A DNA stretch of 64,000 bases. Origin: a virus. The notes under the pieces are model-generated. The model was not told the DNA's origin. It saw only the letters and a program-made list of their open reading frames with translations, and did no database searches. The first letter of the stretch is position 1. Every line of letters begins with the position of its first letter. The stretch spans positions 32,001-96,000 of the IMG/VR virus record IMGVR_UViG_3300020472_001862. The stretch is one strand, 5' to 3'. This document shows, in pieces, positions 7,676 through 43,927 of the stretch. A program made the position numbers and the translations under genes.

Positions 7676-8286
7676 TATACTTTCCCTACATTAATAGACT
7701 GACGTCTTTTTCTTTCTGGTTTTTCCATTGTTGTTCTATATACTGTTCTATCTGATGCACCAACAAAGTTTTGTACAGGTAAAAATATAGCTGCTTTCCA
7801 ATTTTTAGGATGTACTTCTATCATTTTGCCTGTTATGTTAACAGACAAATATTTTTTAACAGAGCCTCTTACTTCTGGAAATCTACTAAAGTTACTTAAA
7901 TAACTCCAATTAGCTTTTAATTCACTTTCATCTGTTAAGTTTCTATTTGAAGGCATTATCTTATCAATAAGATTTGCTCTTAGTGTAGGAGCTAAATAAT
8001 GTAGGTTAATACCACTAAATCCAGATGGCATTGGTTCTGTAATTATAACCAATGGAACAGTATCATAATATGGTAAGTCTGCTTTCCATTTAGGGTCATA
8101 AGAAAACATATACATTTTTCCTACTGCTAAAGTTCTTGCTTCTTTACCTAAATCTGTTTGGCTAGCCTCTTGAAAAGTATTAACTCCTCTAGCATATTCA
8201 CGAACAGCACGAACATACCATTGGACTGACTTGTCTTGGTGTCTATTGCCTGCCGCTTGCTGTATATCTTTGAATGGTGTAGCCAT
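7675..8286 (-). CDS. gp2: DNA end protector protein
   Basis: GKMYMFSYDPKWKADLPYYDTVPL, GINLHYL, AIFLPVQNF. Confidence 0.93.
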   Translation of the reverse strand: MATPFKDIQQAAGNRHQDKSVQWYVRAVREYARGVNTFQEASQTDLGKEARTLAVGKMYMFSYDPKWKADLPYYDTVPLVIITEPMPSGFSGINLHYLAPTLRANLIDKIMPSNRNLTDESELKANWSYLSNFSRFPEVRGSVKKYLSVNITGKMIEVHPKNWKAAIFLPVQNFVGASDRTVYRTTMEKPERKRRQSINVGKV

Positions 8287-8291
8287 GTAAG

Positions 8292-8299
8292 TATTTATA
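8292..8299 (-). promoter_or_regulatory. T4 late promoter for the gp2-gp26 operon
   Basis: TATAAATA on the minus strand, 5 nt before ATG 8286. Confidence 0.8.
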
Positions 8300-13980: not shown

Positions 13981-13988
13981 TATAAATA
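13981..13988 (+). promoter_or_regulatory. T4 late promoter for gp25
   Basis: Exact TATAAATA 5 nt before ATG 13994. Confidence 0.85.
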
Positions 13989-13993
13989 CTAAT

Positions 13994-14398
13994 ATGGCCG
14001 TTCAAAGACAAAAAATAACTAGACTATATAAAGATTTCGATCTAGCCTTCGGTAAAAATGCAATAACGGGTGATATTAATAAAAAGCTAGATGTAAATGC
14101 TGTTAAACAGTCAATGAAGAATTTAATATTAACTGAGCTTATGGAAAGACCTTTCCAACCAGACTTGGGTTCTGCTTTAGCTGGTTTGTTATTTGAAAAT
14201 GCTACAATGTTTACAACAGAAAGAATCAAAGTAACAATAGAAACATTATTAGAAAACTTTGAAAGACGTGCAAAAATTAATAGTATAGATGTAGAACCTA
14301 ATATTGATAATAATAGGTATGATGTATCAATTAATTTTTATGTTATAGGTATTAACGAGCCACAAGAATTAGAAGTCAAACTAGAGAGAATACGATAA
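13994..14398 (+). CDS. gp25: Baseplate wedge subunit
   Basis: YKDFDL.F, AVKQS.KNL.LT…ERPFQP.LGS, LERIR end. Confidence 0.95.
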   Translation: MAVQRQKITRLYKDFDLAFGKNAITGDINKKLDVNAVKQSMKNLILTELMERPFQPDLGSALAGLLFENATMFTTERIKVTIETLLENFERRAKINSIDVEPNIDNNRYDVSINFYVIGINEPQELEVKLERIR

Positions 14399-28473: not shown

Positions 28474-29760
28474 ATGAGACCACTAAGAATTAAAGCATCA
28501 GGTAGTCCTGTTAGTTCCAGTAACATTCAAGGGTTACAGGAAATGACAGATACTGAGATAGAGCAGTATTATAGTGCAATACTTACAAAAGATTTCGCAG
28601 ATAATCATGACGGCACAAATACTGGGGAAATTAATATTGGTGGCTCAGGAACAACTATTGGCACAGCAACAGATACAAAAAGAGATGACGCAGTAGGAAC
28701 ACACCCTACAGACGGAGCATCTTCTACAGTTACTACTTACACAGCTAAACAAGTAGAAACAACAGTATCTGAAAGTATTACTAACAGACCTATAGGTTAT
28801 GTATCATCTGGTACAGTAGGTGTACACGAGTTCGATGATACAGAATTAGACTCAGATATTCTAGATAAAGTAGCTGATGATTTTGTTGCACAAGGAAACT
28901 ATACAATAGGACAGTATTCATTAAACGCATCTACACCTGCAGGTGGTACATGGACATCTAGATATACATTAACAGATACACAGGTAGATGGCACAACTGC
29001 TAACATGTACATTTGGCAAAAAACAACTGCTACAACAGCAGCTGCAACAGATTACAAACCTCTTAAAGTTAAAGATAGTGGCGCAGGTATACAGGAAATG
29101 ACTGTTGCAGAGATTGAACAACAAATGCCTAACTTTAGAAACTATATTATTTCTAGTGGTAAAGGTAAATATGTTTTACAGGCATCAGCACCTGGTTCAG
29201 GTACTTGGGTTCAACAAGGAGACACAGGCGGGTTTACAGACACTAAGAAAGATGTAGCATCACAAAACTACACAGGCGCTTATTCAGGAAGTTATACAGG
29301 TGGCTATACTGGTGGTTATACTGGAGCTAAAAATTACGCAGGAAACTACACAGGCGCTAAAAATTACGCAGGAAGTTATGTAGGAACCTCAGGTTATTCA
29401 GGTACATACACAGGAACATCTGGATATTCAGGCACTTACTCGGGCGCTTATACAGGTACTTACGCAGCAGATTACTCAGGTTACGCAGGAACATCTTACT
29501 CAGGAGATTACACAGGTTCATATACAGGATCATATACAGGCGCTAAAAACTACACAGGATATTATACAGGCGCTAAAACATATGGTGGAACCTATACAGG
29601 TACATCTGCTTACGCAGGTACATACACAGGAACATCTGCTTACTCAGGTACATATTCAGGTACATACACAGGTTATTATTCCGGTACATACGCAGGTGAT
29701 ACAATACAAAGTTCAAGCTCAACGGCCAGTACGGTAAAATTGTGGTTAAGAACTGCTTAA
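28474..29760 (+). CDS. Putative virion protein with internal duplication and C-terminal Y-x-G repeat array
   Basis: Repeated (R/K)PL…QEMT..EI module and about 30 Y(T/S/A)G units. Confidence 0.75.
   Translation: MRPLRIKASGSPVSSSNIQGLQEMTDTEIEQYYSAILTKDFADNHDGTNTGEINIGGSGTTIGTATDTKRDDAVGTHPTDGASSTVTTYTAKQVETTVSESITNRPIGYVSSGTVGVHEFDDTELDSDILDKVADDFVAQGNYTIGQYSLNASTPAGGTWTSRYTLTDTQVDGTTANMYIWQKTTATTAAATDYKPLKVKDSGAGIQEMTVAEIEQQMPNFRNYIISSGKGKYVLQASAPGSGTWVQQGDTGGFTDTKKDVASQNYTGAYSGSYTGGYTGGYTGAKNYAGNYTGAKNYAGSYVGTSGYSGTYTGTSGYSGTYSGAYTGTYAADYSGYAGTSYSGDYTGSYTGSYTGAKNYTGYYTGAKTYGGTYTGTSAYAGTYTGTSAYSGTYSGTYTGYYSGTYAGDTIQSSSSTASTVKLWLRTA
29269..29697 (+). repeat. Coding repeat array of 12- and 18-nt units (Y-x-G-x[-x-x])
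   Basis: Recurrent TAY-ACA/TCA/GCA-GGN units. Confidence 0.9.
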
Positions 29761-29767
29761 TTAGCAG

Positions 29768-29775
29768 TATAAATA
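29768..29775 (+). promoter_or_regulatory. T4 late promoter
   Basis: Intergenic exact TATAAATA upstream of the GGAG SD and ATG 29797. Confidence 0.85.
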
Positions 29776-29796
29776 AACTTACATTATGGAGATATT

Positions 29797-30306
29797 ATGG
29801 CAAAGAAGAAGGCTACACCTTTAAAACTTGAAATTGATCCTACAGAAGTTACAACTGTAGAAGAAACCCCCAAAGAAAAGAAATTTAAATATGTTGCTCC
29901 TTATTGGTCTAATAAAGAGCGTAAGCATATCGTTGTTACTTTAGAATATACTGACGGTAGAAGAGCAACAGCATCTGTCCAAGACATGGACGGAACAAAT
30001 CCAGACTACAAAGCAATATTAGAAGAATTTGGTGAAGAGCAACTCGATAAAAATACAGAAGAAGGTGTTAGACGAAGAGACGAAAATATTAAAAAGAGAC
30101 TTCAAAGAAAAGAAACAGAGGCAGTTCGTGCCAAACAAGAACAATTATTCGGTGCTAAGCTACAAGCATTTGAAATAGAGGCAGTTAAAGACTCTTCTAA
30201 TATAGAATTAAAAAGACTAATTCGTAAAGCTAAATCTCCAATGGAAGTTACAGCCTATACAACTATATTATTAATGGAGTCATTGGATGAACAAAATAAA
30301 TCCTGA
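29797..30306 (+). CDS. Hypothetical protein (possibly fibre-assembly chaperone)
   Basis: 169-aa ORF after the repeat protein. The P.WSN.E…I.V motif is reminiscent of fibre assembly proteins (weak). Confidence 0.55.
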   Translation: MAKKKATPLKLEIDPTEVTTVEETPKEKKFKYVAPYWSNKERKHIVVTLEYTDGRRATASVQDMDGTNPDYKAILEEFGEEQLDKNTEEGVRRRDENIKKRLQRKETEAVRAKQEQLFGAKLQAFEIEAVKDSSNIELKRLIRKAKSPMEVTAYTTILLMESLDEQNKS

Positions 30307-31036
30307 AGAATTTCCTGAGAACGGTTTTGTAATTGTAGCATCCAAACATGAAAGGTTCTATAAAGCAGCTTTAGAGTGTGCAGAGTCAGTAAAATTATTT
30401 TATCCTGAAGCACACATTACACTATTTACAGATCATGAAGAATGGGTTAAACCCACTGATTGGAATATAGCAGACTATATTATAACATGGGAAGTGCCTA
30501 AACATATAAGAGCTAAACTATGGGCTCTGTCGCAAACACCATACAAAGGCAAAACATGTTATTTAGATGCCGATATGTTATGTCAACATGAAGATATAGA
30601 ATTTGTATTTGATCAACTAACAGATGATTTAGATTTAATTTTTACAAAAATTAGGCCATACAATGCTAAAGTAACAAAGTTATCTAACACAGAAGAAATG
30701 ACAATGCACTGTGGAATGTTTGTCTATAGAAATAATCCTCAGACTATTAAGTTAATGGAATCTTGGTATGGAGAATATTTAAAACAAACAGAGCAAACAG
30801 TAGATGCAAAATATGTACATGACATAGGTGGTTATCCTGATGATGTTAGACAATGGGACACTTTTACAATGTGGAAACTTTTAACATATTCAGATCACGG
30901 TGTTAAGTGGGGAGAAGATATGCCTGTTCGTTGGAACTTTATTAATGGCCACATGTATGAAGAACTAGAAGGAGATGAGATTGTTATGTGGCATTACTCT
31001 ATCCCATCTCACGAAATATATTTAAAGAAAAAATGA
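30287..31036 (+). CDS. GT-A fold glycosyltransferase / nucleotide-sugar transferase
   Basis: ITLFTD, KLWAL..TPY…YLDAD (DxD), CGMFVY, WD, RWN, H. Confidence 0.8.
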   Translation: MNKINPEEFPENGFVIVASKHERFYKAALECAESVKLFYPEAHITLFTDHEEWVKPTDWNIADYIITWEVPKHIRAKLWALSQTPYKGKTCYLDADMLCQHEDIEFVFDQLTDDLDLIFTKIRPYNAKVTKLSNTEEMTMHCGMFVYRNNPQTIKLMESWYGEYLKQTEQTVDAKYVHDIGGYPDDVRQWDTFTMWKLLTYSDHGVKWGEDMPVRWNFINGHMYEELEGDEIVMWHYSIPSHEIYLKKK

Positions 31037-31680
31037 TTTGGACTGAAATATCAGATGAAGTAAAAGAAATGTTGGAGCCGTATTCAGAGTGGTTCTTTAG
31101 ACAAGATTTGGCTCCATTAAATAAATTAGCAGAAGACAATCCTAAAAATACAGATACAATGGAAAACGCTTGTTCCAGAGCGTACCTAGATGAAATAGTT
31201 TTAGCAGACGGGCGACATGAAGGCTACCCAGAAATTTCATATAGTTATGATTTAAAAGCAGGCAATATACCTGGTGAGTTTCAAGAAAAATATCAGACAC
31301 TATCTACAGAACTATGTACATGGTTGGGAGCTCGCAACGAGGCTGTCCATGTATACTATCCTAAGAATGGATTCATGAGTTGGCATAATAATTGGAATGC
31401 ACATGGATACAACATACTATTATCCTATACAGAAAACGGCGGTGGGTTCTTTAAATATAGAGATCCATTAACACATGAAGTCGTTGAAATGCTAGATCCA
31501 GGTGGCTGGTCTTGTAAGGTAGGATACTATGGCAGGGGTAGAGAACCAGATAAAGTATACTATCATTGTGCTGGAACACACGAACCTCGCCTCACATTAG
31601 GGTTCGTTATCCCTAATATTGACCTGTGGAGATGTATGATTGAAGATATCTCAGGAAAAGATGCTTCACATCTTTCCTAA
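31033..31680 (+). CDS. Putative 2OG-Fe(II)/cupin-fold oxygenase-like protein
   Basis: YP..GFMSWHNN…YHCAGT..RLTLGF (H-x-N…H…R); ATGA-coupled to the GT gene. Confidence 0.55.
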   Translation: MIWTEISDEVKEMLEPYSEWFFRQDLAPLNKLAEDNPKNTDTMENACSRAYLDEIVLADGRHEGYPEISYSYDLKAGNIPGEFQEKYQTLSTELCTWLGARNEAVHVYYPKNGFMSWHNNWNAHGYNILLSYTENGGGFFKYRDPLTHEVVEMLDPGGWSCKVGYYGRGREPDKVYYHCAGTHEPRLTLGFVIPNIDLWRCMIEDISGKDASHLS

Positions 31681-31788: not shown

Positions 31789-32220
31789 ATGATACTAGAT
31801 AACACAGTAATAATAGCAGGCGAGACGGTTAACAAAGAAAGATGGGGCATGGCAGCACATCACGATGAGAACAAAACTTTTACAGGTGATGTTTTATACA
31901 AAAACCAAATAAGAACAGCACCAAGTGGTTATTCTTATGATAATTCCATTGAAACAAAATTCCAAGATACAGCTCAAGTAGATGGGCTTACAGTTTGGAA
32001 ATCAAATGGTGAAGTTCCATTCGCAGACATGTTATTAGACTTTGTACAAATTGGTGCAATTACTTTGGAACAAGCAGAGTTCTCACTAATACAAAAACAA
32101 AAAGATCAAAGCGCAAGTCTTGATACTTTGTTTAGAGCAGACGACGGCAACATTTACTTAGGTGAAGGTGCCCTAGACTATAGAGACGAAAGACTAGCAA
32201 AAATAGCGGAGGCAGCGTAA
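31789..32220 (+). CDS. Hypothetical early protein
   Basis: 143-aa ORF with GAGGA SD behind the sigma70 promoter. Confidence 0.75.
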   Translation: MILDNTVIIAGETVNKERWGMAAHHDENKTFTGDVLYKNQIRTAPSGYSYDNSIETKFQDTAQVDGLTVWKSNGEVPFADMLLDFVQIGAITLEQAEFSLIQKQKDQSASLDTLFRADDGNIYLGEGALDYRDERLAKIAEAA

Positions 32221-33326
32221 TGATATTTCCTTTACCAACACTTTACAAAAGAGACACGAACGGAAACATTCGTGAACTAACAGTTGAATATTCTAATGGT
32301 GTGATGAATGCTACTAGAACTATTGCTGGAATTAAAGACGGCAACTTAGTTACAAGTGGCTGGAAAGATGCTGTAGGCAAGAACACAGGCAAAGCAAATG
32401 CTACTACAGATGCTGAACAAGCACAAAAAGAAGCACAAGCAATGTGGGATAAAAAAGTAGAAAAAGAATACTTCGAAGATATTTCCAAGATTGATACTTA
32501 TGATAAGTTCAAGCCAATGTTAGCTCATGACTATACAAAAAGGCCACAGTCTAGTGGTATTAGTCAACCTAAGTTAGATGGTATTAGATGTATTGCAAGG
32601 AAAGATGGACTTTACACAAGAGCAGGTAAAGCAATCACAACATGCGATCATATACATTTTGAGTTACAAGCATTCTTTGTACAATATCCTGATGCTATTT
32701 TAGATGGTGAACTTTACAATCACGAACTAAAAGATGACTTCAACAAAATTACAAGTCTAGTTCGTAAAATAAAACCTACTCCAGAAGAGGCAGCAGAATG
32801 TCAAAAACTTGTTGAGTATCATGTTTATGATTGTCCTTACTGGGGCAGAGGTTTAGCTGAAACTACTCTAGACAGAATAAGTTTTATAGAAGATCAAGAG
32901 TTTGAAAGTCCTGTAGTTACAGTTCAAACATCAGTATGTGAAAATCAAGAAGAGTTAGATGCTTTGTATTCACAATACACAGAAGATGGTTACGAAGGCC
33001 AAATGATTCGTAACAATGCCGCTTACGAAAACAAAAGAAGTAAGAACTTACTTAAAAGAAAAGAGTTCATTACAGAAGAGTTTGATGTTGTAGAAGTATT
33101 AGAAGGCTCAGGTAATTGGGCAGGATATGCTAAACACTTTGTTCTTACAGACGGAACAGAAACATTTAAGAGTGGTGTTAGAGGTAATCAAGCAACACTT
33201 AAAGCTCTACTAGAACAAGAAGAGAAACCTACTTGGGTAACATGTAGATTTTTTGAAAGGTCAGTAGATAACATTCCTAGATTCCCGGTTGTAATTGATT
33301 GGGGTGTAGGTAAGAGGATAGACTAA
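32220..33326 (+). CDS. ATP-dependent DNA ligase
   Basis: PMLA, motif I QPKLDGIRC, LDGELY, YHVYD, EGQMIR, KRS.NLLK.K, PRFP. Confidence 0.95.
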   Translation: MIFPLPTLYKRDTNGNIRELTVEYSNGVMNATRTIAGIKDGNLVTSGWKDAVGKNTGKANATTDAEQAQKEAQAMWDKKVEKEYFEDISKIDTYDKFKPMLAHDYTKRPQSSGISQPKLDGIRCIARKDGLYTRAGKAITTCDHIHFELQAFFVQYPDAILDGELYNHELKDDFNKITSLVRKIKPTPEEAAECQKLVEYHVYDCPYWGRGLAETTLDRISFIEDQEFESPVVTVQTSVCENQEELDALYSQYTEDGYEGQMIRNNAAYENKRSKNLLKRKEFITEEFDVVEVLEGSGNWAGYAKHFVLTDGTETFKSGVRGNQATLKALLEQEEKPTWVTCRFFERSVDNIPRFPVVIDWGVGKRID

Positions 33327-33487
33327 TGTTAGAACTAATAGGTTTTATAACTATACTTTACTTGGCAATAAAATTTTTGCCTGACTTGTTAATGTTTATG
33401 CTTAAATTGGCAGTCATACTTTTGTTAATTGTATTAGCAATAGGTGCATTTGAATTTATTTATCATTATATTTACTTTCGAATCTAA
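33326..33487 (+). CDS. Small hydrophobic membrane protein (53 aa, not in ORF track)
   Basis: Hand translation MLELIGFITILYLAIKFLPDLLMFMLKLAVILLLIVLAIGAFEFIYHYIYFRI*; TAATG overlap with the ligase stop. Confidence 0.65.
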   Translation: MLELIGFITILYLAIKFLPDLLMFMLKLAVILLLIVLAIGAFEFIYHYIYFRI

Positions 33488-33731
33488 GCCTTACAAGAGC
33501 TTTTCTTACAATAGCAATTCCAGTTAATCCTAAAAAGTTAATAAACGCAGCCATCTCAGCAGAGGTGCCTGCGTAGTCTATGCAAGCCTTAATTATTCCC
33601 ACACTTAAAGGGAACATTATTATTGCTCCTATGGCGGTGTCATAAGTTGCTTCGTGTAATGCCTTCCTTAATCTACTATTTTGTGCCAATTGCCATAAAC
33701 CTATCAAAATGTACCTTCCCATTCCAATCAT
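33456..33731 (-). CDS. Small two-TM protein (true start probably internal)
   Basis: ALHEATYDTAIG…two hydrophobic helices…VR…R.RF; last gene of the minus operon. Confidence 0.6.
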   Translation of the reverse strand: MIGMGRYILIGLWQLAQNSRLRKALHEATYDTAIGAIIMFPLSVGIIKACIDYAGTSAEMAAFINFLGLTGIAIVRKALVRLRFESKYNDK

Positions 33732-34344
33732 AATAAAATTGTTTTGTCTTGCCTGTGTAGGAGGTATTCACAAGTCCTGCATTTTCTATTAAAGCTTTCT
33801 CACTATCAACACAATTAATACCATACATCTCTTCTATAACATTAGAATTTTGTATAGCAAATATAGCATGTTTGTTGGCAGTCTTTAAATCTTTTAATGG
33901 ATACATCTGTTCTGCTCCCATTGTAATAACTATATCAACCTTAAGTTGATTTAATTCATCAAAAGCAAATGGAATATCCATGTTCCAGTGATTTATTTTT
34001 ATGAATTCTTCGGTGATATAATGCTTATTAAACACCTTAGAGAGCTCTAAAGCTTCGTTATCGATGTCAACTAGGTGCAATTCACCTACGGACAAGTTCT
34101 CACATAAGAGTGGAACTAAAGGAACTCCTAACCAGCTGTTTAATACAAGAATGTTAAACTGCTCGTCTTTCATATAATCATCTAGACTATTTTTTAGTTC
34201 TTCAACTAACCAAATAGCGCCTTCCATTGTATTAGGATTAAGAGCTTGTCTAAAGTCATCATGCTTATGTTTCATCTCATGTTCAACCTTAGCGAGGCCT
34301 TCTCCCCAATATTGCATACTGTTTAAAAAATTAAAATTTAACAT
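33676..34344 (-). CDS. Class I SAM-methyltransferase-like protein
   Basis: ILVLNSWLG (degenerate motif I), LVDID (motif II), DIVI…EQM, IQNSN, RFMAIG.K. Confidence 0.6.
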   Translation of the reverse strand: MLNFNFLNSMQYWGEGLAKVEHEMKHKHDDFRQALNPNTMEGAIWLVEELKNSLDDYMKDEQFNILVLNSWLGVPLVPLLCENLSVGELHLVDIDNEALELSKVFNKHYITEEFIKINHWNMDIPFAFDELNQLKVDIVITMGAEQMYPLKDLKTANKHAIFAIQNSNVIEEMYGINCVDSEKALIENAGLVNTSYTGKTKQFYYDWNGKVHFDRFMAIGTK

Positions 34345-35011
34345 CTTCTTTTCTTCCCATTGAATCAAATAAACAGACATATGGTATTTGTCTGAATACA
34401 TGTTTTTCTATATCATGTGGATAAATATAGCCTTGGTTATAACTATAAAACCACCCTAACGGAAAATATTTAATTCTTGCTACACCTTTGTGCATAAAGA
34501 AATTATCTATTCCACGGTAGTACCATAATATTTTATCTAAATGTGTTTTAAAATAAAGAGTAATATTTTCTTTATCTAAATTATCGTTCCATCTTAATAT
34601 ACTAGAGTTTAAGTCTGTATATTTATGAGGAACATGTTCTGTTTCTTTCTTTTGTGTTTCCATATCATGCCAATGCGTTTGGCCAAAACATAAACAATCT
34701 TCAGGATCAAAGTTTACTATATCATCTATGTTCTTTTGTATAATAATATCTAAGTCCAAGAATAAGTTTTCGCCTTTTTGTCTAACTACATTATCATCAA
34801 ACAAATACATTTTATTCCACCACTTCTCTAATTTGTTTTCTTTAGGAAATGGTAGAACATTAATGTCTTCATTAAGTCCTTTTGCATTTTCTGTTAGACA
34901 GTAAAATGTAAAGCTTTGAGATACAGATTCCAGACAGGATTCGTATATCTTGTTAACATGTTTGGCAGAATATTTACTGCCCCACTTTACTGTATAAATG
35001 TTTAGCGCCAA
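34331..35011 (-). CDS. Glycosyltransferase-like protein (KWG-x-KY family)
   Basis: VKWGSKY, WWNKMYLF, FLDLD, NSSILRW, YSY. Confidence 0.75.
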   Translation of the reverse strand: MALNIYTVKWGSKYSAKHVNKIYESCLESVSQSFTFYCLTENAKGLNEDINVLPFPKENKLEKWWNKMYLFDDNVVRQKGENLFLDLDIIIQKNIDDIVNFDPEDCLCFGQTHWHDMETQKKETEHVPHKYTDLNSSILRWNDNLDKENITLYFKTHLDKILWYYRGIDNFFMHKGVARIKYFPLGWFYSYNQGYIYPHDIEKHVFRQIPYVCLFDSMGRKEDVKF

Positions 35012-35817
35012 TGGTTTAATAACTCCGGATCTACCAATTCATTTTGCTTTGTATGTCCTCTACCTGAAGTCATTTGTTTAGGTAGTAGATCAATATTAAA
35101 TACACAAAGGATTGGTGTTTCTCTGTATATTTCTGTTTCTAAATCATCATCTTCCCAACTACGCCCTCGGTTATACGAGTAGGCATAATCTGATGGGAAA
35201 TGATCCCATAATTTTTTACCCCAATCACCCCATCTCCATGAGTGATAATTGTCTGTTCCGTCTGTATATGTAAACCATATCTTTTCTTGGTTCTCTAATA
35301 CATCATGCCATATACATTCTGCTTGATCGTCGGACCAAACTTGGCAACTGCCATTAGTATATGCTCCGTGTGATAATTTAAATCTCCGCGTCTTCATTGG
35401 GCGCGGGTCTTGCCACCAGCTTCTTAACTTAGTTGGTCTTTCCATATTATAGGTAATTAAAGGCTCTATATCATTTTGTATAATAACATCTAAGTCAAAG
35501 AATATAAAACGACCTGTAGGTTTATCTTCAGCAAAGTTATGAGTATTGAATACCATTGTCTTAGGCCTATCCCAACACCTAGCCATACCATACTTAAAGT
35601 CGTCTTTTTGAAACCAATACTTAGGATGTATGTTAGGTATATCTGGAAAAGGAATAACTTTTACATCATCATCTAATCCTTCGGCATCATCTGTATAACA
35701 ATAGAAATGGAAATCGTGTTTAGGATTACAATTTCTCTTGGCCATATTTTTCAATTTGTTCACAAAGTGAGGACCATATCTGGTGCCCCACTTAGAACAT
35801 ACTACATTTACTCTCAT
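35002..35817 (-). CDS. Glycosyltransferase-like protein (KWG-x-KY family)
   Basis: CSKWGTRY, CYTDD, FFDLDVIIQ, NGSCQVW, GTDNY, YSYNRG. Confidence 0.75.
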   Translation of the reverse strand: MRVNVVCSKWGTRYGPHFVNKLKNMAKRNCNPKHDFHFYCYTDDAEGLDDDVKVIPFPDIPNIHPKYWFQKDDFKYGMARCWDRPKTMVFNTHNFAEDKPTGRFIFFDLDVIIQNDIEPLITYNMERPTKLRSWWQDPRPMKTRRFKLSHGAYTNGSCQVWSDDQAECIWHDVLENQEKIWFTYTDGTDNYHSWRWGDWGKKLWDHFPSDYAYSYNRGRSWEDDDLETEIYRETPILCVFNIDLLPKQMTSGRGHTKQNELVDPELLNHWR

Positions 35818-36485
35818 ATCTCTTTGCCTTTATAATCTCCTGCTAGTGGAAAAATTTTAGTTATTACATCTGCAACTGCATGTGCAATATCCATGTGTTC
35901 TAACTGCGTACCATTAGCACCTCGAAGTTCAATGTAATGTATCCAGCTTCTTAGTGTTCCGTTAACATACATTCTACTCTTAGTATTGCCTTCAGGTAAT
36001 ACAACTCTTGCTTGTTCTTTTGCTATCCCATGTTCTAAAGCCCATGTATAAGCATATCTAGTTTGCCTAATAATATCCTTTTGTAATTCCTGCCACTTAC
36101 TATCTAATTCATAGTCTTCAGTAGGAATACTATTTTGTCTATTTTTAGGGTCTTGCATTCTTGCTTCTCTTACTTCAAACTCTAAGTCCTTTGTAGGATC
36201 TGCATACCGCTGACTAAATTCTTGAAAGCTAAAACTCCTATGCCTTAAAATTTGTCTTGCAATGTCTCTTGTGGTGTCTATTTCTAAACATACACTAACC
36301 ATTTCTAATGGCGACCAATGCTTGTGTTTCATTAGATACTTAATAAGTTTCTCACTTGTATCTTTATTTAACTGCCCATCTGGATTACTTACTCTAGCAC
36401 AAAAGGCTACAAGTTCTGTAGCACTTGTGCTGTCTATAAGATAATTGCCATCTGCTTTACTGTAACTGATTAAGTTAACTTCCAT
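35814..36485 (-). CDS. thyX: Flavin-dependent thymidylate synthase
   Basis: ARVS, H.SPLE, signature RHRSFSFQEFSQRY, E.AR..LP. Confidence 0.96.
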   Translation of the reverse strand: MEVNLISYSKADGNYLIDSTSATELVAFCARVSNPDGQLNKDTSEKLIKYLMKHKHWSPLEMVSVCLEIDTTRDIARQILRHRSFSFQEFSQRYADPTKDLEFEVREARMQDPKNRQNSIPTEDYELDSKWQELQKDIIRQTRYAYTWALEHGIAKEQARVVLPEGNTKSRMYVNGTLRSWIHYIELRGANGTQLEHMDIAHAVADVITKIFPLAGDYKGKEI

Positions 36486-36723
36486 ATATTCCCTCGTTTC
36501 CGAATGTCCCTGCTCTGGTTCGAGCAATTATAAAGTCCGTTCCATATTGTTTACCTATATTAGCTAGTGCCGAGGTAATTTCAATACATTTATCTTCGAA
36601 TGTTTCTATACGAACACGCACAATTAATGTTGCAAATTCAGTTTCCGCTATTAAAGGAACATAAATATCTGCATCGTCAAATGCACCTTCGATTACAACA
36701 CCGTCTTTTCTTACTTTTAACAT
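36475..36723 (-). CDS. Hypothetical protein
   Basis: 82-aa ORF overlapping both neighbours in the operon. Confidence 0.6.
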   Translation of the reverse strand: MLKVRKDGVVIEGAFDDADIYVPLIAETEFATLIVRVRIETFEDKCIEITSALANIGKQYGTDFIIARTRAGTFGNEGIYGS

Positions 36724-38207
36724 AAACCACCTTGTTCATTATGTATTATTGCTGGATTCAACTTTAATAAATTATTAAAGTAACCTTTAAAGAAGTCATT
36801 TGTAAAAATTTCTTCTAGAGTGTGTTCATTTATATTATTCTTATCCCAACTATACAATAACTCTGTCTTGTGTTCAGGAGAATTATATGCAGTAGTTAAG
36901 TTAAGAGCCACATGTTTACAGGGAAACACATTACCTTTAGAGTTTAGATAAAATGAATTATTAACTTTACCTTCACACTTAACATGTGGTGAAAACTTTA
37001 TTGTTCTCTCTTTATATATGTCATCTTTTTTTCTTGTCTGTAGAGTCTCTAGTTCTATAAGTTTATAGTCTGGCATGTCTGGTTTTTCTTTTTTATCTAT
37101 TACTATTTCTTCTTTAGATATTTGATTATCATATATAAAGCCATAAAAATTATATTGTTGTGAAATCTTTTTAGCTTTCTGAATATCAGAATCTAACTGA
37201 TTCGTATGTACATAATTCCAAAACACTCTACACCCAGAGTCTATTAATGCCTTTGCATTTTGTAATATTCGTTTATCTGGATTGCCAGTATTAATATTAA
37301 ATGTAATATTGCCTGCTTCTAAAAACATTAAGCCTAAGTTACTCCACCAAATAGGTTCATTAGATTTGCCATCTGTAGTTATATCACACCCACCAATACC
37401 CCATCTAGACATAAAGAAATGAGCTATATCAAATAGTTCAGGATTTAGTGTAGGGTCTTTATCTGTACCTTTAAAATGTATTCTTTTTAACTTAGATTTT
37501 TCTATAAAGTCTTTTGTAAATGTATCCTCTATCTGTTCTAAAGTTAGATAGTCATCTCCTGATATAGGATTTATTTCTACTCTTTCAGGTAAGTAAGGAT
37601 AAAGATCTGTTTCTTTGTTATACATTCTATCTAATTGTTCTTCAGTAAAATCCTCATACCAAAAAGGCAATGCAACTATATTACCATCTGTTTTTTCTGG
37701 ATAGGATGCTGTACTATCTTGTAGGAAAGGTATTGTACCTTCTTCTATCAAAAACTTCTCGCTAAATATATCATAGTTATATAATAAATCATCTTCGCTT
37801 TTGTCCCATTCTTTAAGTATGGCCTCCACTTTATCATTACGGTATACAAAATATCCTAGGTTACCATCCTCAAGCAAAATCTTCTTGTTTGATTTATAAA
37901 TGTCTATGTCCTGTATGTTGTTAATAATACAATTAGGAGTTATAAACAATGTATGTCCGCCAGGTTTGGTATGTTGCATTATATCTATTTCCAACCAATC
38001 CTTCCCATACTTAGGCACATGAAAGGTTATACCATCTATATAGCCTTCTTTTTTTCGTGTAGTTTCTAAAATTTTATATTCATCATCATTAGTAAAGACA
38101 TAGAAATCAAAAGGATCTACGCACAGTTTCTTAACCTGCGTATATAATGCGTTTATTTGTACTTGACTGTAATTATTGTCTAGCTGATTTGCTATAATCG
38201 TTACCAT
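36717..38207 (-). CDS. Degenerate glycosyltransferase-like + radical-SAM/SPASM-like fusion
   Basis: N-terminus aligns by eye with the neighbouring GTs but lacks DxD. C-half has F.G…DPTLNPEL, ITTDG…WW..L and C…YLNSKGNVFPC but no CxxxCxxC. Confidence 0.55.
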   Translation of the reverse strand: MVTIIANQLDNNYSQVQINALYTQVKKLCVDPFDFYVFTNDDEYKILETTRKKEGYIDGITFHVPKYGKDWLEIDIMQHTKPGGHTLFITPNCIINNIQDIDIYKSNKKILLEDGNLGYFVYRNDKVEAILKEWDKSEDDLLYNYDIFSEKFLIEEGTIPFLQDSTASYPEKTDGNIVALPFWYEDFTEEQLDRMYNKETDLYPYLPERVEINPISGDDYLTLEQIEDTFTKDFIEKSKLKRIHFKGTDKDPTLNPELFDIAHFFMSRWGIGGCDITTDGKSNEPIWWSNLGLMFLEAGNITFNINTGNPDKRILQNAKALIDSGCRVFWNYVHTNQLDSDIQKAKKISQQYNFYGFIYDNQISKEEIVIDKKEKPDMPDYKLIELETLQTRKKDDIYKERTIKFSPHVKCEGKVNNSFYLNSKGNVFPCKHVALNLTTAYNSPEHKTELLYSWDKNNINEHTLEEIFTNDFFKGYFNNLLKLNPAIIHNEQGGLC

Positions 38208-38949
38208 GCCATAATCTCAATAATGTCTCATCTTCTAATTCATCTATTTTTATTTGCTTATTATTAGACTTCAATACATCTACATTAAATAAACAAAATT
38301 TACATTCTTCTCTATATTTATGTGTCTCCAAATCCTCTGGAAATTGCATTCCTCTATTGTAAGAGTAAATCCATTCAAAAGGCATATTGTGCCAGAACTC
38401 TCTTTGACGCCAGTAATGATAGTTATCTGTTCCTTTCCAGAATGTTTTAAATATCATTTGATCTTCTTGTAATGCCTCCCAAAAGATATGTTCACATTGA
38501 TCTCTATTCCAACACATTACACTAGAGTTAAAAAATGTTCCTCGAATATCAATAAACTTCCTATCATGTTTGTGTTTAGGATTTTGCCACCTAGAATGTA
38601 TAATCCTAGGCTTCAAGGCCAGTTCATATATATCTGATATATCACTTTGTATAATAACATCTAAGTCTAAGTAACACCATTTATCGTCGAACCCTAAGAA
38701 GTTATGAGAATTAAATACTAAAAACTTAGCCCTATCCCAACAATAGTTTTCTTTACCAAACCAATACTTAGGATGTAATGGTTCTATATCAGGTATATCT
38801 CTAGCATCACATTTTAATCCTGTATCATCATCTGTATAACAGGTAAATGTAAAGTCATTGTGATAGTGTTCCTGTACCATACGATACAGATTGTTTACAT
38901 ACTCAGGAGAGTATTTAGTCCCCCACTTGATGCATACAAAGTTCATCAT
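38173..38949 (-). CDS. Glycosyltransferase-like protein (KWG-x-KY family)
   Basis: CIKWGTKY, CYTDD, YLDLDVIIQ, NSSVMCW, GTDNY, YSYNRG. Confidence 0.78.
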   Translation of the reverse strand: MMNFVCIKWGTKYSPEYVNNLYRMVQEHYHNDFTFTCYTDDDTGLKCDARDIPDIEPLHPKYWFGKENYCWDRAKFLVFNSHNFLGFDDKWCYLDLDVIIQSDISDIYELALKPRIIHSRWQNPKHKHDRKFIDIRGTFFNSSVMCWNRDQCEHIFWEALQEDQMIFKTFWKGTDNYHYWRQREFWHNMPFEWIYSYNRGMQFPEDLETHKYREECKFCLFNVDVLKSNNKQIKIDELEDETLLRLWHGNDYSKSARQ

Positions 38950-39577
38950 ATTCTTTCTCAATCTCCGGGTGTCTGTCTAAGCCGTTTAATAAACATATAG
39001 GATACTCTGGTCTATACTTTCTTCCTGAATAAAGATAAGAGTATACCTCATTATGTGGCAAGTGTTCAAATGTAAATCCTTCATGGTAAAGATAAGTATC
39101 ATCACCATATGGATATTGTACATCATATGTTTCAGGATATTTATTATAGTGATTCCATATATGCGTGGCATCTTTCCATAACATTACACTAGAATTATAA
39201 TTACTTAATGGAAATCCTGGCTGATGAGGGAAATCATGTATATTTAATTGTTTATCTCCCTTATCTTTCCACCAAGTATATACTATAACAGGATTATCAA
39301 CACAATAATCAAACAAATGATCTATGTTCTTTTGTATTCTTATGTCTAAATCTAAATATAATATAGTACCCATATCCTTTAACTGGAATAGTTTTATTTT
39401 TTCCATATTGTCGTTGGGTTCATGTTCCATATAAATAATCCCGATATCAGGATGTAACCCTTTAGGGTCATCCGTAACGCAAACATAATCATATTTGCCT
39501 TCGGTATGTTCGTATATAGAATTAACAGCATCAGAGCTGTATTTCTCACCATATTTTAATGTTAAAATAGTTTTCAT
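38915..39577 (-). CDS. Glycosyltransferase-like protein (KWG-x-KY family)
   Basis: LKYGEKY, CVTDD, YLDLD, NSSVMLW, GDD.YL, YSY. Confidence 0.75.
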   Translation of the reverse strand: MKTILTLKYGEKYSSDAVNSIYEHTEGKYDYVCVTDDPKGLHPDIGIIYMEHEPNDNMEKIKLFQLKDMGTILYLDLDIRIQKNIDHLFDYCVDNPVIVYTWWKDKGDKQLNIHDFPHQPGFPLSNYNSSVMLWKDATHIWNHYNKYPETYDVQYPYGDDTYLYHEGFTFEHLPHNEVYSYLYSGRKYRPEYPICLLNGLDRHPEIEKEYDELCMHQVGD

Positions 39578-39589
39578 TGTAATCACTTT

Positions 39590-39601
39590 TATTTATAAAT
39601 A
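39590..39601. promoter_or_regulatory. Palindromic bidirectional late promoter TATTTATAAATA
   Basis: Contains TATAAATA on both strands between the divergent GT operon and the fibre genes. Confidence 0.85.
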
Positions 39602-39634: not shown

Positions 39635-39964
39635 ATGGCAACCGTTTCAAATGTAGTAATAGATCAAGGTACGACGTTCAGTTTGGAGTTAAATCTCACA
39701 AACGACGACACTACTGCTAAAGATTTAACGAATTATACAGTAACTTCACAGATGAGAAAATCTTATGAAGCTACAACTGCTACAAGTTTTACTACTGCCA
39801 AGGTTAATGCTACAGGTAAAATAACAATATCTTTAACAGCAGCAGAAACAGCAGCTGTTAAAGCAGGAAGATATGTTTACGATATTGAGATAGCCTCAAG
39901 TTCGGAGACATTAAGAGTTTTAGAAGGAATAGTAACAGTAACACCAAATGTTACAAGAGCATAA
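39635..39964 (+). CDS. Small virion/fibre attachment protein
   Basis: IDQGTTF, DLTNY…QMRKSY, GRYVYDIE, RVLEG.V.V.P.VT. Confidence 0.75.
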   Translation: MATVSNVVIDQGTTFSLELNLTNDDTTAKDLTNYTVTSQMRKSYEATTATSFTTAKVNATGKITISLTAAETAAVKAGRYVYDIEIASSSETLRVLEGIVTVTPNVTRA

Positions 39965-39974
39965 GGAGATTTAG

Positions 39975-40232
39975 ATGGCAGTTAATGTTAACGCTACACA
40001 AAATCCAGTATCGGTATCCGTATCGACTGGTAGTACTAGAGTCGTAACAACTACCACAACTCAAAGCCAGGTTGCAACTTCAACTAACATTGACAATTTG
40101 TCTGGTATTGATACCAGTGCAAAACAAAATGGGTATACTCTAGTTTATGATGGGAGTAGCGGTAATTTCATAGCAGCACCAGCATCGTCTGTTGCAGCTT
40201 CTATTACAGCTATTGACGGTGGCACTTTTTAA
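39975..40232 (+). CDS. Small fibre-associated protein ending in DGGTF
   Basis: NG.TLVYD…F motif and C-terminal IDGGTF. Confidence 0.7.
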   Translation: MAVNVNATQNPVSVSVSTGSTRVVTTTTTQSQVATSTNIDNLSGIDTSAKQNGYTLVYDGSSGNFIAAPASSVAASITAIDGGTF

Positions 40233-40289
40233 GATGGTATAAAGCTTTATATTATAATATTTAAAAGACATTTAACTAGGAGAAAATAA

Positions 40290-41684
40290 ATGGCAACAAC
40301 AATTCAAATTAAAAGAAGTACAGGCGCAGCAGCTCCCGCTACTTCGGATTTAGTTGAAGGCGAATTGGCGTATGCTGAGGATAGATCCAACTCAGGAGCA
40401 TCTGCTAAGTTATACATTTCATCTATTGATTCAGGTGGTAACGAGGTTATTCAAGAATTAGGTGGTAAGTACTACACCGATCTTATTGACAACGCTACAA
40501 ATTCAGCTACGGCTAGCACCCTTGTAAAGAGAGATGGAAGTGGACACTTTAACGGCGCAACTATTACAGGTTCAACACTTACTGATGGCACGGCAAGTAT
40601 AAATTCAGGTGCTATTACAGGAGCAACAAGTATAACAGCTTCTGGTACAGTACAGTTTGGATCTATATCAGATGGTACTATTACAGCAACTGCATTTGTA
40701 GACGAAGACAATATGGCTTCCGACAGTGCAACGCTTATTCCAACTCAACAATCTGTGAAAGCCTATGTAGACGCACAAGTAACAGCAAGTGATTTAGATG
40801 CAGCTGGTGATTCTGGAACAATAGATATAGATCTAGATTCAGAAACATTTACAGTAGCAGGTGGTACAGGTATTACAACTGCAGCATCCGGCACAACAAT
40901 TACAGCGACACTAGATAATACAGCAGTTACAGCAGGATCATATGGTTCTACTACAGCTGTTCCAATATTAACTATTGACGCACAAGGTCGTATTACAGCA
41001 GCTTCAACAGGTTCGATTGCTACTTCGTTTAATATTGCAGCAGACTCAGGTTCAGACGATACTGTGGCTGGTGGCGAAACATTAACTTTCGAAGGAACAG
41101 CGAACGAAATAGAAACAACAGTTTCCAATAACAAAATAGCAATAGGCTTACCTACAAATGTAACAATTTCAGGTAACCTTACAGTTAGCGGTACAACTAC
41201 AACTGTAGATTCCACAACATTATCCGTAGCAGATCCATTGATCTCACTAGCAACAGGCAATAACTCGTCTGACGCAGTGGACATTGGTATATATGGTTTG
41301 TATGACACTTCAGGTTCAACTGATTTATATGGCGGTTTATTCAGAGACGCTAATGACTCAGGTAAATGGAAGTTATTTAAAGACAACCAAGCAGCACCTA
41401 CTACAACTGTAAACACAGGCGGAACAGGTTACGCAGTAGCTACATTAGTAGCAAACATTGAATCATCTAGCGCTACAATTACAGGCGGTACTATTACAGG
41501 CATCACAGACTTAGTAGTAGCAGATGGTGGTACGGGCGCAGGTACATTTACTTCTAAAGGTATCCTTTATGGTAATGGTACAGGAGCTTTACAAGTAACA
41601 GCAGCAGGTACTGAAGGACAAATTCTTCAAGCTGGCTCAGGCGGTACTCCAGAATTCGGTGGAATAGACGGCGGAACTTATTAA
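40290..41684 (+). CDS. Tail/whisker fibre protein
   Basis: IQIKRS…L.EGELAY N-terminus, PTQQSVKAYVD, GNLTV.GTTTTV, C-terminal DGGTY. Confidence 0.82.
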   Translation: MATTIQIKRSTGAAAPATSDLVEGELAYAEDRSNSGASAKLYISSIDSGGNEVIQELGGKYYTDLIDNATNSATASTLVKRDGSGHFNGATITGSTLTDGTASINSGAITGATSITASGTVQFGSISDGTITATAFVDEDNMASDSATLIPTQQSVKAYVDAQVTASDLDAAGDSGTIDIDLDSETFTVAGGTGITTAASGTTITATLDNTAVTAGSYGSTTAVPILTIDAQGRITAASTGSIATSFNIAADSGSDDTVAGGETLTFEGTANEIETTVSNNKIAIGLPTNVTISGNLTVSGTTTTVDSTTLSVADPLISLATGNNSSDAVDIGIYGLYDTSGSTDLYGGLFRDANDSGKWKLFKDNQAAPTTTVNTGGTGYAVATLVANIESSSATITGGTITGITDLVVADGGTGAGTFTSKGILYGNGTGALQVTAAGTEGQILQAGSGGTPEFGGIDGGTY

Positions 41685-41703
41685 TATTAGATAGGATTTT
41701 GAA

Positions 41704-42036
41704 ATGGACGAACAATTAATTAATGAATATATTAACAACTTGGCTAATCAAGTAAATAACTTGACCCAAGAGAACATACTACTTAAAACTAGACTTAGTC
41801 TTTTAGAGAAAAGGGAACAAGAGAGGTTGACAGCAGAAGAGAAGAAGGAAGTTCCAACACAACCGGCACCAAAGAGTGAATACTCTACACCGCCGGAGGA
41901 ACAACCTAAGCCACAGGTGGAACAAATAGTTCCTAAAGAACCTGATTTTGTTAAAGGGCCTAAACCAAAAGGATATAATCCTAAGGTGGATGGACCAAGA
42001 CCTCTTATCCCTAATCCTAAAATAGCAGAGGAATAA
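41704..42036 (+). CDS. Hypothetical coiled-coil/Pro-rich protein
   Basis: 110-aa ORF with N-terminal heptads. Confidence 0.7.
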   Translation: MDEQLINEYINNLANQVNNLTQENILLKTRLSLLEKREQERLTAEEKKEVPTQPAPKSEYSTPPEEQPKPQVEQIVPKEPDFVKGPKPKGYNPKVDGPRPLIPNPKIAEE

Positions 42037-42040
42037 TCAA

Positions 42041-42361
42041 ATGGCAACAGTAATAAAAATAAAGAGATCGGAAACAGCAAGTGATGCACCTACTACCAGT
42101 GATTTAGTTGCAGGTGAGGTAGCATTAAATACAGCAGATCAAGTTCTGTATGTAAGAGATTCTGGAGGTTCGATTGTTAAAGTTTCTAACTTTTCAGAAG
42201 TAGACCAATCTTTAGTTTTTCCTACTGGCGACTATGGAAGTGTGGCATCAGCGCTAGCAACAGACGCATTTGGCCAAACTATAGACAAAGTATTTGATTG
42301 TAATTCAAGTGTTAAGTATAGAGTAAGTGAAGTAGATCTCGGGTCGGATTCAGCAGTATAA
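42041..42361 (+). CDS. Short fibre-module protein
   Basis: IKIKRS…P…L..GEVALNT.D N-terminus paralogous to 40290; DYG and DLG motifs. Confidence 0.72.
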   Translation: MATVIKIKRSETASDAPTTSDLVAGEVALNTADQVLYVRDSGGSIVKVSNFSEVDQSLVFPTGDYGSVASALATDAFGQTIDKVFDCNSSVKYRVSEVDLGSDSAV

Positions 42362-42375
42362 CAAGGAGACTATAG

Positions 42376-42630
42376 ATGACAGTTACAGTACAGTTTAGGA
42401 GAGGGACAACAGCACAGAACAATGCGTTCACTGGCTCGATTGGCGAACTTTCTGTAAACACTACAACAAATACTATTAGGGTCCATGATGGGAGTACAGC
42501 AGGCGGGCATGAGCTTATGAAGGCTGATGCCACAAATATTGATGGGAATGTACCCATAGGTAACATTTCAGGAACAATATCAGCTAGCGCATTGGATGAT
42601 GGGTCTAGCATAGACGGCGGAACATATTAA
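42376..42630 (+). CDS. Short fibre-module protein
   Basis: VQFRRGTT…FTG..GEL…VHDG.TAGG; ends DGGTY. Confidence 0.78.
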   Translation: MTVTVQFRRGTTAQNNAFTGSIGELSVNTTTNTIRVHDGSTAGGHELMKADATNIDGNVPIGNISGTISASALDDGSSIDGGTY

Positions 42631-42643
42631 TTAGGAGACAAAA

Positions 42644-43927
42644 ATGCCAACACAAGTACAATTTAGGAGAGGGACGACTACACAGAACGAATCCTTTACT
42701 GGTGCGGTAGGTGAACTTTCCGTAGATACTACGCTAGATACAGTTCGAGTACATGATGGTTCAACGGCAGGCGGTATAAGGCTAGCAAAATATTCTGAGA
42801 TACAATCAGGGGATATTACAGCAGTCGTAGCAGGCACAGGACTATCAGGAGGAGCTACTAGCGGAAGTGCTACAGTAAACTTATCACACTTAGGCTTAGA
42901 AAGCCTTTCAGACCCAAATGATGATCAGATAATATTTTGGGATGACTCAGCAGGAGCAACTGCATTTTTAGATTTAGGCACAGGTTTGTCTATATCAGGA
43001 ACAACAATTTCTGTAGGAACACTTAACCAAGATACTACAGGAAACGCAGCTACGGCAACAGCATTAGAAACAGCTAGGACTATAGGTGGTACATCATTTG
43101 ATGGTACTGCAAATATAGCAGTTGCATTAGCAGCAACAGCTACAACATTAGCAACAGCAAGAACAATAAACGGTGTAAGTTTTGATGGTAGTGCAAATGT
43201 AACTACATTAACAGCAGGCACAGGTGTTTCAGTTTCAGGCACAGCAGTTTCAATAGGACAAGCAGTAGCAACATCAGATGATGTTACATTTGCAGATGTA
43301 GCAGCAACAGGTAATGTTACTATTACAGGTAACTTAGATGTAAATGGAACAACTACAACCTTAGATTCAACTAACTCTACTATTGCAGATAGACTAATTG
43401 AATTAGGAAACGGAACAACAGGAACACCAGCAAACGATATGGGTCTGGTCTTTGAAAGAGGATCTTCAGACAATGCGTTTATTGGTTGGGACGAAAGTGC
43501 AGATAAATTCCTAGTAGGTACTGGCTCATTTACAGGTGCAAGTACAGGAGATTTAACAGTTACCACAGGAACACTTGTAGCAAACTTAGAAGGTAATGTT
43601 ACAGGTAATGTTACAGGTAACACAAGTGGAAGTTCAGGTTCATGTACAGGGAACGCAGCAACAGCTTCGGCACTTGCAACAGCAAGAACTTTATCGTTTA
43701 CAGGAGATGTTACAGGTACAGGAGACTTTGATGGCTCAGGTAACTTAGCAACTGCATTAACTATAGCAGCAAATAGTGTTGCATTAGGTACAGATACAAC
43801 AGGGAATTATATGGCACAAGTAAGTGGTGGAGATGGTATTACTATTTCTCACACGCAGAGCGAAGGCTCAACGGCTACAATTACTGGCACAGCAATATAT
43901 GATTCAAGTGGAACTAAATTAAATTAA
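42644..43927 (+). CDS. Tail fibre protein
   Basis: VQFRRGTT N-terminal domain, repeated GNAATA.AL.TARTI…FDG, WDESADKF. Confidence 0.82.
   Translation: MPTQVQFRRGTTTQNESFTGAVGELSVDTTLDTVRVHDGSTAGGIRLAKYSEIQSGDITAVVAGTGLSGGATSGSATVNLSHLGLESLSDPNDDQIIFWDDSAGATAFLDLGTGLSISGTTISVGTLNQDTTGNAATATALETARTIGGTSFDGTANIAVALAATATTLATARTINGVSFDGSANVTTLTAGTGVSVSGTAVSIGQAVATSDDVTFADVAATGNVTITGNLDVNGTTTTLDSTNSTIADRLIELGNGTTGTPANDMGLVFERGSSDNAFIGWDESADKFLVGTGSFTGASTGDLTVTTGTLVANLEGNVTGNVTGNTSGSSGSCTGNAATASALATARTLSFTGDVTGTGDFDGSGNLATALTIAANSVALGTDTTGNYMAQVSGGDGITISHTQSEGSTATITGTAIYDSSGTKLN

Follow-up and report, generated by a model that had tools for sequence, protein, structure and literature searches.

An uncultured marine T4-like phage, represented by the IMG/VR record IMGVR_UViG_3300020472_001862, carries a tightly packed group of genes resembling glycosyltransferases (GTs) between two blocks of tail-fibre genes. 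The window, to which positions refer unless stated otherwise, is the whole 64,000-nucleotide (nt) stretch analysed here, bases 32001-96000 of this 170,236-bp record, which is judged 99% complete. Nine minus-strand open reading frames (ORFs) fill 33456-39586 without gaps, neighbouring frames overlapping by 4-56 nt, and the run begins at a perfect palindrome that also faces fibre genes on the other strand, as an earlier note on this DNA had described. The features of the locus are the following.

39590..39601, both strands: 12-bp palindrome TATTTATAAATA, with a T4-type late box, TATAAATA, on each strand.
39594-39601, plus strand: late box facing the structural gene F109, half of the palindrome.
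39597-39590, minus strand: late box facing GT1, half of the palindrome.
38915..39586, minus strand: GT1, GT8-like paralogue (KYGEKY, DLD; E 3e-8 to GT2; PHROG 1962, glycosyltransferase, 5e-10); the true start is likely the ATG at 39577, where its relatives begin.
38173..38961, minus strand: GT2, GT8-like paralogue and the modelled member (KWGTKY, DLD; AlphaFold2 (AF2) model, predicted local distance difference test (pLDDT) 87).
36717..38207, minus strand: fusion protein of 496 amino acids (aa), variable insertion (decayed GT domain and radical-SAM/SPASM-like C-domain).
36475..36723, minus strand: 82-aa ORF, variable insertion (39-54% identity by tblastn in relatives).
35814..36527, minus strand: ThyX, flavin-dependent thymidylate synthase, variable insertion (Pfam Thy1, 4e-44).
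35002..35817, minus strand: GT3, GT8-like paralogue, the most conserved gene of the cassette (KWGTRY, DLD; E 7e-56 to GT2).
34331..35011, minus strand: GT4, GT8-like paralogue (KWGSKY, DLD; E 3e-22 to GT2; PHROG 1962, 8e-9).
33676..34401, minus strand: MT, class I S-adenosylmethionine (SAM)-methyltransferase-fold protein and core member (AF2 and Foldseek); translation probably begins at an internal Met, residue 8 or 20.
33456..33731, minus strand: 91-aa hydrophobic protein, probably membrane-bound; found by tblastn in the close clade only.
32220-33326: ATP-dependent DNA ligase (PHROG 114, 1.6e-65), between the two fibre blocks.

The four intact paralogues reported in the earlier note were confirmed in coordinates, strand and motifs, and GT2 retrieves the other three within the genome at the E-values listed. 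K(W/Y)GxKY, DLD, NSS and GxDNY are kept in all four. The DLD, a DxD motif, is invariant in GT1-GT4 and 15 homologues, and about 27 further residues do not vary across the paralogues and their orthologues. In the AF2 model, GT2 has a GT-A fold superposable on GT8 structures. Foldseek matched this model to LARGE1, alpha-1,3-galactosyltransferase, XXYLT1 and UGGT at E ∼1e-8, and an independent all-against-representatives alignment put GT8 enzymes on top: GlyE (Z 16.2, root-mean-square deviation 3.1 over 210 aligned residues), glycogenin (Z 16.0), WbbM (15.4), LARGE1 (15.4), UGGT (15.1), Skp1 Gat1 (14.9) and LgtC (14.9), with A64R of chlorovirus PBCV-1 at 13.2. GlyE, glycogenin, Gat1, LARGE1, UGGT and A64R are extenders of protein-bound glycans. 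The glycosyltransferase fold proposed in the earlier note is supported by the model as a GT8-like one, and the paralogues are predicted to be retaining GT-A (GT8-like) glycosyltransferases.

Against Pfam PF01501, GT1 and GT2 scored 18.1 and 18.8 bits, below the gathering score of 24.3, and GT3 and GT4 gave no match; sequence-profile searches of the PDB found nothing significant for the GT family, for MT, or for two flanking genes described below (o230 and the gene at 30287). The profile search for the GT family returned 3062 clusters at 50% identity, and the paralogues belong to a large, separate and unnamed GT8-like GT-A family that Pfam does not capture. This family is almost confined to viruses. 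When 185,579 cellular species genomes were scanned by pattern, 10 loci emerged, mostly on short contigs of metagenome-assembled genomes that look like mis-binned phage; the sole clear isolate copy, in Neorhizobium, sits between an efflux pump and an iron transporter and not in a lipopolysaccharide (LPS) locus. Among 50,697 phage records, megablast with the locus and tblastn with GT2 gave no matches, and GT4 reached distant matches only, in Mosig, C48C1 and two Xanthomonas jumbo phages.

The methyltransferase-like gene of the earlier note has a class I SAM-methyltransferase fold in its AF2 model (pLDDT 80, residues 1-22 disordered), which Foldseek matched to BioC, COMT, NRMT2 and METTL6 at E 7e-9 to 1e-7, with template modelling (TM) scores of about 0.5. 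Its motif I is atypical, reading LNSWLGxP rather than GxGxG; D112 and D114 (in LVDID) are invariant. Pfam and NCBIfam searches gave no match for MT.

The phage is recognisably a T4-like myovirus, with genes for gp32, baseplate, neck (gp13/14/15-type), terminase, sheath, portal and scaffold, and its portal is ∼50% identical to those of cyanomyophages. Since neither psbA nor CsgG (PF03783), the curli gene typical of pelagimyophages, is present in the genome, the phage is neither a typical pelagimyophage nor a typical cyanomyophage. After gp32, window positions 939-2362 encode a fatty-acid desaturase (PF00487) and a 2-oxoglutarate-Fe(II) oxygenase (PF13759).

Relatives were sampled in two ways, as 80 viral contigs collected through the GT family and as 26 informative contigs collected through gp13, blind to the GTs; promoter boxes were scored in 63 relatives. 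Gene order in the 80 is constant: F109 / GT1 GT2 ... GT3 GT4 MT / o230, GT-A gene, o169, Tyr-x-Gly protein, o176. The cassette always diverges from F109, which adjoins GT1 in every relative, and always converges on the Tyr-x-Gly block. In the gp13-based sample, the core GT1-GT2-GT3-GT4-MT lies beside F109 in 26/26. The cassette, which the earlier note placed between two fibre clusters, is fixed among structural genes in every informative relative; here the ligase lies between the fibre blocks too. Where neck proteins are 56-61% identical (gp13/gp14, 57-61%), identity is 72% (median) for GT3, 58% for GT2 and 54-55% for GT4 and MT. By this comparison the cassette evolves at the slow pace of the neck proteins, in the manner of a core gene rather than of a floating accessory one.

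The remaining ORFs behave differently. The GT2-GT3 junction (35814-38207 here) is an insertion hot spot; the two genes abut in 52/80 relatives, the SPASM-like fusion gene is found in 25/80 and ThyX in 6/80, and two contigs that are 90-95% identical elsewhere (L005 and L007) differ by ThyX. The membrane protein and the ligase are confined to close relatives, the ligase to some of these. Comparison of relatives indicates that ThyX, the GT/SPASM-like fusion, the 82-aa ORF, the membrane protein and the ligase are lineage-specific insertions that the cassette would not need for its function. Of the single overlapping operon proposed in the earlier note, the overlaps hold and the unity does not, ThyX and the fusion being variable. 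Its gene list was correct as far as it went, with ThyX and the 82-aa ORF overlooked. ThyX is a canonical, equivalog-level enzyme (TIGR02170, 154.9 bits against a cut-off of 87.9) with RHRSFSFQEFSQRY (the RHR...SQRY motif) in its sequence; being variable among relatives, its place in the operon says nothing about cassette function. The 82-aa ORF had no matches in Pfam or PHROG.

A degenerate fifth GT copy had also been claimed, and was found as the N-terminal third of the 496-aa fusion (hhalign to the family profile, E 4e-5, probability 69.5%), with KWG lost and TPN in place of DLD. The C-domain of the fusion resembles viral radical-SAM/SPASM proteins as a feature-based look-alike only: SPASM scores 18.5 bits, under the cut-off of 21.5, and the CxxxCxxC cluster motif is not in the 496-aa sequence. 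This C-domain is homologous (E 3e-17) to that of P0114, a fusion whose GT is intact. Because metagenomes hold an intact GT joined to the same C-domain (P0114, P0121, P0123), the 496-aa protein is a decayed form of a recurring architecture. In the metagenomic proteins P0114, P0121, P0122, P0123 and P0124 (454-807 aa), an intact GT of the family is joined to a C-domain that shows a C..GxVxPC...CxxxCGxC pattern and no radical-SAM CxxxCxxC.

The expected time of expression was examined through the promoter boxes. The window contains 23 copies of TATAAATA where 11 are expected, and 35 of the 47 genome-wide boxes have a gene on their own strand no more than 100 nt downstream, compared with 7 when the strand is flipped. 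Genes of the window that follow a box include those for the sheath and scaffold and those at the tube and capsid positions, and the genome encodes a homologue of the late coactivator gp33 (PF16805, 4.5e-16). These statistics indicate that TATAAATA is a genuine, oriented T4-type late promoter motif in this genome; PHROG annotation of the genes behind the other boxes is mostly blank. Among the 63 scored relatives, the F109-facing box is perfect in 61. Toward the cassette, 24/63 have a perfect box, which is the palindromic form of the close clade, and 32/63 have one that matches at 7/8 positions, where shuffles gave 1.5% and 20%, respectively, so that 56/63 relatives have a box of at least 7/8 toward the cassette against 20% expected. 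Most of the 7/8 boxes read TATAAATT, ∼31 nt ahead of the ATG, and belong to another layout, a crossing one. Maintenance of a cassette-facing box through two layouts argues for function, with the caution as to late timing that TATAAATT is weakly gene-associated in this genome (5/16). Between 32000 and 40300, the counts of sigma-70-like promoters (39 for an expected 41.9) and of terminators (4 for an expected 3.4) are at chance level. Late expression of the cassette is likely on this evidence.

Seven TATAAATA boxes in the genome end exactly 5 nt before a start codon (window 13981-13994 and 8286-8299; G000 23959, 137989, 141062, 143826 and 155769). Those seven late mRNAs would be leaderless if transcription begins ∼6 nt past the box, as in T4.

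On both flanks, the cassette is bordered by genes of interest as acceptors or as further sugar enzymes.

39635..39964, plus strand: F109, small Ser/Thr-rich Ig (immunoglobulin)-like protein of the structural module (PHROG 1084 and 3304; 28% Ser+Thr).
39975..43927, plus strand: fibre-like genes F85, F464, F110, F106 and F427, candidate acceptors (tail-fibre PHROGs, Mtd_N domain).
28474..29760, plus strand: Tyr-x-Gly repeat protein, candidate acceptor on the other flank (28% Ser+Thr; always convergent with the cassette).
29768..31680, plus strand: late box (29768-29775), o169, probable GT-A gene (30287-31036, YLDAD) and o230, from a box scan and orthologue alignment.

A weak match (E 0.0065) links F109 to p132, the collar protein of T5. 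The five most Ser/Thr-rich of the 185 proteins (F109, F85, F464, F427 and the Tyr-x-Gly protein, 27-32% against a median of 11%) flank the cassette. The earlier note had also placed a GT-A gene at 30287 behind a late promoter. That gene indeed overlaps an ORF starting 21 nt after the TATAAATA box at 29768, and eight orthologues give weak GT-A matches in Pfam (GT2 in six, Nucleotid_trans in two, GT8 in one). Elsewhere in the genome are a sugar epimerase/dehydratase gene and a gene of GT60, the polypeptide GlcNAc (N-acetylglucosamine)-transferase family; the nucleotidyltransferase PF00483 was not found in the genome.

Some observations on these neighbours stand by themselves. The N-terminus of F427 (42644-43927) is a Major-tropism-determinant domain (PF18454, 3.8e-11). 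o230 (30988-31680) has no family match, and its H133, H193 and R201 (H..H..R) are invariant in nine orthologues. Just upstream of the window, the run at G000:C1:28551-31199 (L085) encodes a cell-wall hydrolase, an NAD-dependent sugar epimerase/dehydratase, gp33 and a PF11397 glycosyltransferase, with two TATAAATA boxes upstream; PF11397 is GT60, the Skp1 GlcNAc-transferase family.

The best reading of the locus is that the cassette sugar-coats the Ser/Thr-rich fibre proteins of the phage itself, which we propose tentatively and with confidence just short of even. Its core would be a five-gene, cytoplasmic, glycan-building cassette of four GT-A (GT8-like) enzymes with intact DxD motifs plus MT, transcribed from a T4-type late promoter back-to-back with that of the fibre operon. 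Late in infection the four enzymes would successively add sugars from host, perhaps phage-modified, nucleotide sugars to Ser/Thr (possibly Tyr) side chains, or to a priming sugar, on F109, F85, F464, F427 and the Tyr-x-Gly protein. Glycosylation would take place before or during assembly, and MT would cap the glycan. Support for a virion-protein target is circumstantial throughout. It includes the promoter region that the cassette has in common with F109, its strict partner, and the second GT-A-like gene, which appears to be co-transcribed with structural-module genes behind a late box of its own. The GT60-family and epimerase genes elsewhere in the genome and the Ser/Thr-rich neighbours of the cassette count in the same direction.

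Several observations weigh against this interpretation. The best fold matches of GT2 also include the LPS/lipooligosaccharide (LOS) enzymes WbbM and LgtC, and fibre proteins are Ser/Thr-rich in general. TATAAATA is found upstream of the regA and hsp20 homologues as well, so it is not a mark of virion genes only. The late promoter that the earlier note assigned to the cassette has survived as a genuine, oriented motif, but less well as a promoter of this operon: apart from its perfection in only 24/63 relatives, the box is imperfect in most distant ones, and here no more than 12 nt separate it from the ATG at 39577, leaving a leader of ∼6-7 nt; the Shine-Dalgarno sequence of some relatives would be cut by such a start. 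Contigs from four seawater RNA libraries (three studies) span the operon as well as the fibre genes and are 99% identical to them, which is evidence of presence only, as these contigs carry no information on strand, start, level or timing and are no proof of transcription. Lastly, Mosig, a pelagiphage in culture, has a distant homologue whose neighbours are genes of nucleotide metabolism and not virion genes. At that locus (L181, MT647606.1 124832-130666), two methyltransferases, two glycosyltransferases and a sulfotransferase are found next to nrdB and RuvC.

The host envelope is the leading alternative and a serious one, although we regard it as rather unlikely. From the inner side of the host membrane, the enzymes would then modify precursors of the LPS/LOS core, the O-chain or the capsule, and the altered surface would, for example, prevent adsorption by other phages or by the phage's own progeny. 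GT8 genes in the host-recognition cluster of pelagimyophages have been read as O-chain modification (PMC7029224), and the small membrane protein that ends the operon in close relatives would suit an envelope role. Fold cannot separate this target from a protein one, because LgtC and WbbM score as well as GlyE. Other evidence is less accommodating. A late-type promoter is ill-suited to superinfection exclusion, the membrane protein is dispensable across relatives, and the cassette has no flippase, polymerase or lipid-carrier transferase. Furthermore, the cassette is fixed and core-like in its conservation and does not vary like a host-adaptive accessory gene, the family is nearly absent from cellular genomes, its isolate copy is outside any LPS locus, and the hallmark pelagimyophage gene CsgG is missing.

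An acceptor of some other kind is improbable, but would be consistent with part of the data. The product in this case would be a soluble or lipid-linked methylated oligosaccharide, or a modified host or non-virion phage protein, and the location among fibre genes would be historical. Hypervariable regions of T4-like phages do gather unrelated genes, as the ligase and ThyX illustrate here, and the distant homologues in Mosig are accompanied by methyltransferases and a sulfotransferase away from virion genes. However, position is strictly conserved, the divergent promoter region is common to F109, and conservation is core-like in relatives down to ∼55% neck-protein identity.

Hypermodification of DNA, in which the oligosaccharide would be built on a hydroxylated pyrimidine of phage DNA with ThyX as part of the pathway, is very improbable: GT8-like GT-A phage enzymes do add secondary sugars to glycans bound to 5-hydroxymethylcytosine (5hmC; bioRxiv 10.1101/2023.12.21.572611) and a thymidylate synthase gene does lie within the operon, but the cassette never adjoins replication genes in relatives, 74/80 of which keep it and lack ThyX, and the genome has neither a ThyA-family enzyme (PF00303; hydroxymethylase, 5-hydroxy-dCMP synthase) nor a C5 cytosine methyltransferase (PF00145), searches whose controls were positive. 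A search for TET/JBP (PF12851) also found nothing, although it is unvalidated since control genomes gave no match either. Timing does not contribute to this verdict. The earlier note had set DNA aside on the grounds that its modification must accompany replication, which is contradicted by PMC13326640, where such transfers are placed late, up to packaging.

The closest published setting is that of the marine T4-like pelagimyophages, in which GT8 is the commonest GT family of a fibre-containing hypervariable cluster; late promoters could not be found there, and modification of the host O-chain was proposed (Zaragoza-Solas et al. 2020, PMC7029224). Both have several GT8-type genes among tail-fibre genes, in a hypervariable region between the baseplate and neck modules. 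The locus described here departs from those clusters in its constant set of five genes, its late-type box and a GT family that Pfam does not recognise as GT8.

Known systems with a protein acceptor offer partial parallels. In the streptococcal serine-rich-repeat adhesin system, GT-A enzymes extend an O-glycan stepwise. That system likewise encodes several paralogous cytoplasmic GT-A enzymes beside a Ser/Thr-rich fibrillar protein, and its GlyE (PDB 5gvv) is the best structural match of GT2. The two share 13% identity, and the streptococcal system is a bacterial one, coupled to export, in which the GT-B pair GtfA/B does the priming; the cassette shows no primer of that kind, and the GT60-family gene lies elsewhere in the genome.

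To our knowledge, virion glycosylation has been shown experimentally among tailed phages in mycobacteriophages only, whose glycosyltransferases reportedly decorate capsid and tail-tube subunits, in 2023 work attributed to Freeman and colleagues (cited in PMC12619734 and PMC12801897). Mycobacteriophages differ as siphoviruses of Actinobacteria. Among eukaryotic giant viruses, A064R of PBCV-1 also carries a glycan-capping methyltransferase domain, which fits the logic of glycosyltransferases combined with a methyltransferase. Like the paralogues, A64R (PDB 2p6w) has a viral GT-A domain, and it glycosylates a virion protein in the cytoplasm; unlike them it has fused domains, makes an atypical N-linked glycan and shows no sequence similarity.

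Phage DNA glycosylation (alpha/beta-GT of T-even phages; arabinosylation in RB69 and DLP3, PMC13326640; 5hmC glycans) shares the use of several GTs in series, sometimes GT8-like, and a thymidylate-synthase-like gene nearby. Those clusters combine a hydroxylating enzyme (ThyA-family or TET) with nucleotide kinases and with transferases that are mostly GT-B, none of which is seen here, where the synthase is an ordinary and dispensable ThyX.

In its most specific form, the proposal is that an uncultured, widespread marine T4-like lineage attaches a methyl-capped oligosaccharide by O-glycosylation to its own Ser/Thr-rich fibre proteins, by means of a virus-specific GT8-like family without a database model, and that this is the first virion glycosylation system of a T4-like phage; we consider this possible, though we would stop short of calling it probable. 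If true, T4-like phages, the best-studied group of phages, would be added to mycobacteriophages and giant viruses as makers of a glycan coat for their own virions, which would bear on host recognition, on particle stability in seawater and on losses to grazing or adsorption. The assumption in print that the host O-chain is remodelled by GT8 genes from marine myophage fibre clusters would also be overturned. Whatever the target, the paralogues define a large, nearly virus-restricted GT-A family without a Pfam model.

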